Source: Schmidtea nova (Eukaryota). From it: DNA of 64,000 nucleotides. The DNA is taken from contig CM097882.1 in NCBI GenBank assembly GCA_044892505.1, positions 41,354,001 to 41,418,000 of the forward strand. Direction: 5' to 3'. The notes below the pieces were generated by a model. That model saw only the letters and a list, made by a program, of their open reading frames with translations, was not told the DNA's origin and ran no database searches. The position numbers and the translations under genes were made by a program. This document shows, one piece after another, positions 37,903 through 39,234 of this stretch (position 1 is the stretch's first letter; each line of letters begins with the position of its first letter).

Positions 37903-38560
37903 TCAAAAGCCATGCGCACACCGACGCGTACAAAATAAATATTTAACTACGCACACAGACGAAGCACAAAATATCAACGCGCACACAGACGCGAGGACTA
38001 TGCCCAGGTAGAAATCACCAGCCCATTTTAATCCAATTGTCGAATTTTCGATTTCCATCATTGTGTTCTCTTCTATCGCCAAATCAATCTCTTCGGTTGT
38101 TGCCTCAATTTCTTCGAACATGACGAAGGTTTCCAACGTTGCTATTTCCGTTGATGTTGATGCTACGTTCCGGAGATTCTTATACTCCTCCAACGAATAT
38201 CTTCTAGATGGTAACTTTTTTGGAGGAGATATATCGTCAATCCAACGATGTTCTATTTGTAGATATATTCTCCTTATACCCTTGACATCTTCCATCGCTG
38301 AGTGAATGCCCACCTGAGTATCTTCTCCGCATATTTCCTGCGCCACTGTTTTTAATTTATATCAATCTCCCCTTCTAGTTATTCCCATTCTTTGAAATAC
38401 CTGTGCAGCGGCCAAATCCCTGATACCGTAAAATTGATTTACCCAAATTTAAAGGAATGTTAATTCAGCATGTAAATCATGCCCAACCAAGATTTTTCCC
38501 GCTGTTAGTTTCTGTATATCTCTCATTTCAGGATTCTTTTTTGGATTCTTTTCGTTGCAT
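37903..38560 (-). pseudogene. REX4/ISG20-like DEDDh 3'-5' exonuclease with acidic linker and C-terminal transmembrane helix
   Basis: GKILVGHDLHAEL, IRDLA, YKLKTVAQEICGEDTQVGIHSAMEDV...IY.....W, then FYLGIVLASVCALIFCASSVCVVKYLFC. Two in-frame stops; the ExoI motif is not recognisable. Confidence 0.75.
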
Positions 38561-38631
38561 ACGATGGAAACACTCATATTGCATCTGTACATACCACATT
38601 TAGTATCATTACCGTTGAGATCAGTAGCACT

Positions 38632-39234
38632 TTATTGATATAATTTAGTGGAGCCGGGTTTTTTCGTGAATTTCTGTTTAATCATTGTCTGTTTATCTTT
38701 ATTTGATTTTGATCTTAACGGATATCGTGTCATATTTTCCATTGGTACCTTTTTACACCGATTTACGTGAACAATTATTGTTCCCGCCGTTTTATTGTTT
38801 TGTGGGCGTAATTTTAGATTAGTCTCTGTAGCATCGCACACTAAATATGGTCCTTTAATCAGTTTCCCAGTTTTGAAATCAAGTGTGACTCCTTGTAATT
38901 GTTTCATGATGTCCATGCCAATCAAACATTTGACCGGGCTTTTTCTCATCACTGATACCCAATGAGTTATTTCTTGGTTTCCAATATTTACTTTGACTTC
39001 TAATTTTCCGACGATGTTTAATACGTTATATGTCATTGACTTAATTATTTTTCTTGTTGGCTTTATTTCCACCTTCTCTTGTCTAGTCAAGAAACTTTTC
39101 GATACTATGCTGTGACTTGAACCTGAATCCAATAGCGCCTCAACTTTTCGCTTATTAAACTGTATGTCTACGCGAGATTGTTTTCCTCCGAACTCTATTG
39201 TCATTAATGCGTAACTGCATGGTAGCCCAAGCAT
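38632..39234 (-). CDS. Retropepsin-type aspartic protease, downstream of and in frame with the glycoprotein
   Basis: VEALLDSGSSHSIV active site and CLIGMDIM C-terminal motif. Confidence 0.9.
   Translation of the reverse strand: MLGLPCSYALMTIEFGGKQSRVDIQFNKRKVEALLDSGSSHSIVSKSFLTRQEKVEIKPTRKIIKSMTYNVLNIVGKLEVKVNIGNQEITHWVSVMRKSPVKCLIGMDIMKQLQGVTLDFKTGKLIKGPYLVCDATETNLKLRPQNNKTAGTIIVHVNRCKKVPMENMTRYPLRSKSNKDKQTMIKQKFTKKPGSTKLYQ

Follow-up and report, generated by a model that had tools for sequence, protein, structure and literature searches.

The window, by which we mean the whole 64,000-nucleotide stretch analysed, is AT-rich animal DNA containing assembly gaps. On its minus strand lies an LTR element of 16.6 kb (49485 to 32923), which encloses the exonuclease fragment studied here. 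The element and its immediate flanks comprise the following features:

49486–49489 and 32919–32922: 4-bp target-site duplication flanking the LTR element
48668–49485, minus strand: 5′ LTR (TG...CA), from alignment to the 3′ LTR
48664–48648, minus strand: primer-binding site, directly after the 5′ LTR
46294–48108, minus strand: gag with stops (Retrotrans_gag, CCHC knuckles)
43568–45010, minus strand: gB/chuvirus-type envelope, 5′ part (Pfam Monjiviricetes_fusion, E 1e-32 and 1e-18)
39976–43565, minus strand: nested, unrelated Gypsy-like element inserted in env, with its own gag and pol
39283–39975, minus strand: remainder of the envelope (3′ part), which includes its tail and a transmembrane segment (Pfam/domain scan)
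38860–39279, minus strand: aspartic protease (DSG motif) in the same frame as env (Pfam gag-asp_proteas, E 4e-9)
38692–38883, minus strand: C-terminal module (tail) of the integrase, from similarity to relatives' polyproteins
38527–38691, minus strand: junction stretch with one stop; exonuclease ExoI and N-terminal domain missing here
38170–38526, minus strand: back half of a DEDDh exonuclease (ExoII and ExoIII) with two stops, from the relatives' alignment
38010–38169, minus strand: acidic tail; those of the nearest relatives are longer and carry a C-terminal motif absent here
37700–38005, minus strand: T-rich spacer with four 12-nt repeats (37880–37991)
36931–37680, minus strand: cargo ORF of 249 aa, next after the spacer behind the exonuclease fragment
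About 33755–33741, minus strand: polypurine tract, immediately ahead of the 3′ LTR
32923–33740, minus strand: 3′ LTR, its first bases carrying two changes

A decayed errantivirus around the fragment

The two LTRs are 96.3% identical across 815 aligned bases (K2P 0.038), and we take the primer-binding site to be tRNA-Trp-like. The succession of gag, gB-type envelope, and protease, the TG...CA LTRs, the target-site duplication (within the 4–6 bp usual for the group), and the primer-binding site are those by which errantiviruses are recognized; env precedes PR-RT-RH-IN in the relatives P0003, P0007, and P0105, and P0013 stops after RH. Judged from its sequence, the element is a GAG-ENV-POL Ty3/gypsy errantivirus of the planarian type with a gB/chuvirus-type envelope. 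The 5′ part of that envelope is 34–38% identical to env of P0003, P0006, P0007, and P0019, and in one stretch 53 of 60 residues, counted by eye, are like those of the Smed_errantivirus_1 envelope. A reading made from the sequence alone had placed the exonuclease inside an LTR element, and the LTRs, target-site duplication, gag, env, and protease bear this out. Troyka (CG ends, a 3-bp target-site duplication, no env) was considered as the identity of the element and rejected.

The protease, 61% identical to P0004, joins the integrase tail directly; the tail is 52% identical to P0003 (residues 2223–2287), 53% to P0018 (residues 1402–1462), and 78% to the N terminus of P0033. The RT, RNase H, and integrase core are absent from the element; since its own copies of these have been deleted, it is a defective, non-autonomous derivative. 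With stops read as X, the end of env, the protease, and the exonuclease stretch form one frame of 690 codons containing six stops. The nested Gypsy-like element is young; it has very short identical ends (108 bp), an open 862-aa pol frame, and DUF7047, and contigs from other copies bridge its site, joining 39969/39975 to 43566.

The cargo ORF (36931–37680) has a C-terminal half that is 51% identical over 104 columns to P0171, a ribonucleotide reductase small subunit-like protein that is by name RRM2 of Schmidtea mediterranea. P0171 is divergent and is the ORF's sole match; for the N-terminal half an IFRD-like lead came from the Atlas alone (score 0.90). Taken with the envelope's likeness to Smed_errantivirus_1, the Schmidtea match makes a planarian host probable. 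The ORF may be another deletion fusion, and ribonucleotide reductase cargo in a retroelement would be unusual in itself.

Several observations stand beside this account. A decayed region between gag and env (45385–46300, minus strand) carries the motif DxDEYLxDCG twice, and the motif also occurs in P0006 and P0007. Elsewhere in the window lie a foldback element with long inverted arms (53054–54166) and a hAT transposase remnant with a BED finger and dimerisation domain (56575–58544). In P0033 the integrase tail is joined to a RING-TRAF-MATH protein, which is either cargo or a chimeric gene call. P0007 (HBK71150.1), although an env-pol polyprotein of errantivirus type, is assigned to a Flavobacteriaceae MAG; its presence in that bin is likely animal contamination.

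The exonuclease fragment

Two DEDDh motifs, ILVGHD (ExoII, 38493–38476) and HSAMED (ExoIII, 38304–38287), lie in the same minus-strand frame, as the sequence-only reading had noticed, and the ExoII Asp and ExoIII His-x4-Asp align with ISG20L2 and with the protein family described below. The window and the family have the His form of ExoIII; the Tyr of DEDDy enzymes is not present. With stops read as X, the fragment matches ISG20L2 (7yw5) at E 0.005 and, among the relatives, matches P0014 best (E 3e-25). Pfam alone gave no match in the fragment, and neither did a search of the fragment against longer proteins, which is a weak test.

The whole range 37903–38640 had been assigned to the exonuclease. 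ExoII and ExoIII stand, but ExoI is absent and 38640–38527 has no similarity to the exonuclease family; a RING-like remnant looked for in the junction stretch (38527–38691) was unsupported. Among the 1282 six-frame segments of the window, the family profile is significant only at profile positions 259–405 of 505, so ExoI is missing rather than merely diverged. One further minus-strand segment, 36985–36722, looked by eye like the family's C-terminal motif and ranked top of the 1282, but at E 0.54, and was not accepted; it could be the end of a second exonuclease paralog.

Three stops fall within the range (38634–38632, 38451–38449, and 38364–38362), the latter two separating ExoII from ExoIII, and the open frame that carries the hydrophobic helix (38361–37906, 152 aa) contains ExoIII only. 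Contigs from other copies show different letters at two of the three stops, which are thus not common to all copies. With these stops, and with ExoI and the front half lost, the earlier description of this copy as inactivated holds; to go by its letters, the fragment is a piece of a dead exonuclease pseudogene. The acidic stretch that had been described between ExoIII and the hydrophobic run is likewise present (38010–38169).

The cupin-DEDDh family and its setting

A relatives search over 1.84 billion representatives gave 214 proteins at E 0.001 or better, the best 150 of which are listed. The family consists of stand-alone proteins of about 320–680 aa (maximum 684) that begin at a Met of their own. 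In these proteins a cupin-fold domain at the N terminus is followed by a DEDDh domain resembling that of ISG20/REX4 and by an acidic tail that varies; about 170–200 conserved residues precede the complete DEDDh domain. Counts refer to a set of 63 members, several of them near-duplicates from 90% clusters, from which nine cellular-looking sequences (apart in the tree) and the window's own readings had been removed. The sequence-only reading had made the ExoI DxE motif a test of its assignment: the motif is absent from the window in all frames but present in the relatives, the D-E-D-H-D set, ExoI DxE included, being intact in 45 of the 47 members whose sequences cover every one of the five catalytic columns. 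P0079 and P0093 are without the catalytic set.

Against the PDB, a profile of 41 members matched ISG20L2 (E 1.6e-31), ISG20 (E 3e-23), SDN1 (E 4e-18), and also PAN2; TREX was absent from its 11 PDB sequence matches. Pfam RNase_T was matched by 31 of the 41. A model of P0031 (pLDDT 86.8) aligned with ISG20 (1wlj) at Z 18.7 (rmsd 2.4, 161 residues), with SDN1 (5z9x) at Z 14.2, with Plex9.1 at Z 12.7, and with TREX1 at Z 11.7–11.9, so that, as modeled, the family's exonuclease fold is closest to ISG20. The profile match to ISG20L2 and the fold match to ISG20 uphold the original assignment to DEDDh exonucleases of REX4/ISG20 type. The TREX1-like layout proposed alongside it is not supported: TREX1 has a lower Z, and no TREX is among the PDB sequence matches.

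For the N-terminal domain, all 50 listed structural matches of a model of P0153 (pLDDT 84.8) are cupin or 2OG-oxygenase folds, at Z 8.2–6.2; the best has Z 8.2, rmsd 3.2, and 94 residues aligned. Foldseek E-values for the domain lie above 0.001, and scores in an Atlas search were all under 0.8. These matches are consistent with a double-stranded β-helix (cupin) fold, at middling strength. In the domain alignment a single His (H88 of P0031) is nearly invariant, as is a Ser, and there is no HxD/HxH pair. Because only one His is conserved, binding or dimerisation is a likelier function for the domain than catalysis.

In a midpoint-rooted tree of the exonuclease domain, whose deeper nodes are weak, P0014 is the sister of the window fragment (UFBoot 99), the two belong to a clade with P0161, P0051, and P0040 (99), and ten cellular-looking REX4-like sequences separate at 100. 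The viral contigs scanned held no relative of the exonuclease or the RT, and one distant env locus (L005); the prokaryote genomes scanned held no exonuclease relatives.

One metagenome scan gave four loci: L001; L002, which is the same element; L003, without context; and L004, which was rejected as a family locus, being a cellular-looking REX4 instead. L001 is a Gypsy pol whose RT-RH is 64–68% identical to P0003, P0007, P0013, P0018, and P0067, and its pol (3–7106) also has, as extensions, a second protease-like domain together with ankyrins and, at the C terminus, a hydrophobic segment. Behind this pol lie two family genes as separate ORFs, one without catalytic motifs (7283–8740) and one intact (9043–10371). 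Both end in soluble tails, and short direct repeats (89 and 62 bp, one set behind each gene) lie in non-coding spacers; an ORF with a weak ubiquitin-like end follows. L001 begins inside pol, and its env is deduced from RT similarity. Family and element are thus linked in two contexts, the window and L001/L002 (one element), both behind this lineage's pol. The catalytically dead L001 paralog may act as a binder or decoy. From these sequences, the family appears to be an undescribed cupin-DEDDh accessory gene of giant Gypsy errantiviruses.

The relatives' polyproteins have peculiarities of their own. In P0003, P0006, P0018, P0027, and the L001 pol there are additional domains resembling aspartic proteases (as many as four in P0006). 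Behind the integrase, the same five carry a segment that looks like a signal, a possible ectodomain, and, at the C terminus, a hydrophobic segment. Of the relatives, P0070, P0082, P0003, and P0006 lie on long contigs of 30, 12, 16, and 22 kb, respectively. Ahead of env, residues of about 115–290 in P0105 form a different DEDDh-looking stretch (by eye; no Pfam match), possibly a second exonuclease capture.

Origin of the hydrophobic end and the apparent fusion

The hydrophobic run that follows the acidic stretch reaches its best 19-residue Kyte–Doolittle (KD) mean, 2.68, at 38001–37945, and the frame stops at 37905–37903. The C-terminal helix of the sequence-only reading is therefore real as an in-frame feature but is encoded by the repeat-rich, T-rich spacer: helix and stop come from the spacer's first 100 bases. 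Along the reading direction the four repeats are spaced 30, 35, and 35 nt apart, and the helix spans the first two; the spacing is not a multiple of three, although the one 30-nt interval does keep frame. At about 37980, where the helix starts, A-rich sequence gives way to T-rich (coding-strand T content rising from 18–33% to 43–62%), and all three spacer frames yield KD windows of 1.6 or more. Shuffles reached 1.6 in 1262 of 5000 cases (28 in a coding control) and 2.68 in 28 of 5000; base composition alone would give a less hydrophobic helix. Contigs from other copies differ in the spacer array by extra or altered units, and two of their joints keep frame in the spacer region (75 bases; 82 replaced by 37).

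The relatives end differently. Under a transmembrane cut-off of a 19-residue KD mean of 1.6, a crude test, none of 41 family tails of at least 40 residues passes, which tells against the tail anchor that had been proposed. The tail that comes closest is that of P0014, the window's nearest relative, with 1.55 near its end. In the wider clade to which the window fragment belongs, a common soluble motif forms the C terminus of many full-length proteins, and the repeat spacer behind the window fragment resembles those behind the L001 genes. A transmembrane segment had been anticipated in intact ORFs; the relatives, L001 included, have soluble tails instead, these being relatives rather than intact copies from Schmidtea nova. 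The membrane anchor proposed for the window fragment most probably arose by chance in this copy.

With a probability of roughly 0.8, which covers both the anatomy and the step of deletion and run-on into the spacer, we read the stretch as part of an errantivirus accessory gene that has decayed to a pseudogene. Internal deletions would have joined the rear half of the exonuclease in one frame to env, protease, and integrase tail; further loss of the gene's end would then have let the frame enter the repeat spacer, which supplied the hydrophobic helix. Neither the cupin-fold domain of the relatives nor the deletions forming the apparent ORF figured in the sequence-only reading.

That reading, a real tail-anchored DEDDh nuclease in this lineage, held at the membrane like TREX1 and removing immunostimulatory nucleic acid or rival cDNA, now seems improbable. 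In its favor, no stop separates ExoIII from the helix, which shares its frame; basic residues lie between the helix and the terminal stop; the KD mean of 2.68 falls in the top 0.6% of shuffles; the end of P0014 is weakly hydrophobic, and the two joints seen in other copies change length by multiples of three. Yet no tail among the 41 passes the cut-off, the soluble motif closes many full-length members of the wider clade, the helix derives from a repeat array of 35-nt spacing in T-rich DNA, and the fold is nearer ISG20 than TREX1. We give similarly low credence to the exonuclease having been the last domain of an env-pol polyprotein in the intact element, from which the viral protease would free it. 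In the window it does share a frame with env, protease, and integrase tail, but after a deletion the chance of a shared frame is one in three. PMC6431247 describes Burro accessory ORFs as free or inside the polyprotein; however, an RNase_T domain was found in 0 of ten scanned polyproteins longer than 1000 aa (P0105 is an eleventh), family members, none longer than 684 aa, have a start Met of their own, and in L001 the genes are separate ORFs.

More improbable still is a chance acquisition, by this copy alone, of part of a host REX4/ISG20-like gene or of some other element. The fragment is flanked by two junctions, and the element holds other captured pieces (the nested Gypsy and the RNR-like ORF). 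The fragment nests, however, among cupin-DEDDh proteins and not among cellular-looking REX4 sequences, the same family lies behind a related pol in L001, and contigs at least 80% alike (short contigs of other copies) cover the fragment in all four runs.

Possible roles and relation to known systems

DEDDh enzymes use two metals in catalysis. Taking the stretch as the remnant of an errantivirus accessory gene, the intact gene would encode, from its own ORF, a soluble two-metal 3′–5′ exonuclease preferring single-stranded RNA; its product is probably a soluble 3′–5′ RNase. The gene would go back to a single capture of a host REX4/ISG20-like gene and would since have been retained by selection. 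ISG20 prefers RNA, as the available part of PMC9157404 has it.

As to function, we tentatively favor counter-defence, in which the enzyme might trim small guide RNAs or other silencing-triggering RNAs. We rank this role first for three reasons: planarian PIWI represses such elements, the closest structures include a small-RNA nuclease (SDN1), and a dead paralog has been kept next to the active one. In the portion of PMC8532177 at hand, BURRO1 rises upon smedwi-2 RNAi in the planarian. A role in 3′-end processing of the element's own RNA or primer comes second, conceivable but doubtful, and we regard other roles for exonuclease cargo as equally so; the accessible text of Rodriguez et al. discusses processing of the element's own RNA for DEDDy cargo (PMC5408684). 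Less probable again is the specific proposal that the cupin-DEDDh ribonuclease of giant GAG-ENV-POL errantiviruses destroys or trims host piRNA/siRNA guides, sometimes as an active and dead pair. If true, it would be a retroelement-encoded suppressor of small-RNA silencing, drawn from the enzyme group of vertebrate antiviral ISG20. Smed_errantivirus_1 has 45 intact copies in a model planarian in which PIWI control of such elements is under study (PMC8532177); this brings within reach the question of whether retroviruses of invertebrates use a nuclease of their own against silencing.

Among cellular enzymes, ISG20, ISG20L2, and REX4 (1wlj, 7yw5) share the catalytic fold and motif layout with the family, which differs in being retroelement-borne, in its extra N-terminal cupin-fold domain and acidic tail, and in forming a separate clade. 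Arabidopsis SDN1 (5z9x), the third-best PDB match, also combines a DEDDh domain with added sequence; unlike those of the family, its added domains are, we assume, not cupins. TREX1 is a host DNase, a dimer with a preference for DNA and an ER anchor. It belongs to the same DEDDh superfamily, and the window frame likewise ends in a hydrophobic run; the fold match is weaker (Z 11.7–11.9), however, and the anchor is absent from the 41 relatives' tails.

Among retroelements, nematode NERVs are GAG-ENV-POL gB-type errantivirus kin. In the part of their study available, Chary and Hayashi describe the GAG-ENV-POL layout in nematodes, bryozoans, and flatworms (PMC13524379), and the HSV/gB-type errantiviruses treated there share with the window element an env in frame ahead of protease and pol. 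Smed_errantivirus_1, from the same source, has an env close to the window's, whereas the window copy is short, deleted, and non-autonomous. None of the six Smed errantivirus loci given in that study (assembly GCA_022537955.1) has a called LTR. The available portions of that eLife text and its seven supplements make no mention of an exonuclease, and the Burro section of PMC6431247 mentions none. Burro elements, by their description there, carry ankyrin and ubiquitin-like cargo, as does L001 (its ubiquitin-like match being weak). They are of a type exceeding 30 kb with MATH/TRAF, BIR, BCL2, ankyrin, and ubiquitin-like cargo; the window element measures 16.6 kb including a 3.6-kb insert and deletions, and none of these domains was found in 25 window ORFs.

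DEDDh or cupin-DEDDh cargo of LTR elements was not found in the literature searched, although Sacco 2022, Grohme 2018, or Repbase may mention the gene; in that literature, exonuclease cargo in LTR elements is known as the DEDDy type only. RNase D-like DEDDy cargo is noted in the accessible part of PMC6338049, and the rotifer Juno and Vesta elements, in the consulted text of PMC5408684, carry an RNase D-like DEDDy ORF3 without TM domains. That ORF3 is likewise a DnaQ-like exonuclease accessory ORF behind pol; it is DEDDy, whereas the family here is DEDDh with a cupin domain, and the window element also has env (PMC5408684). With more than 60 sequences and intact active sites, the cupin-DEDDh family would represent a second, independent exonuclease capture.
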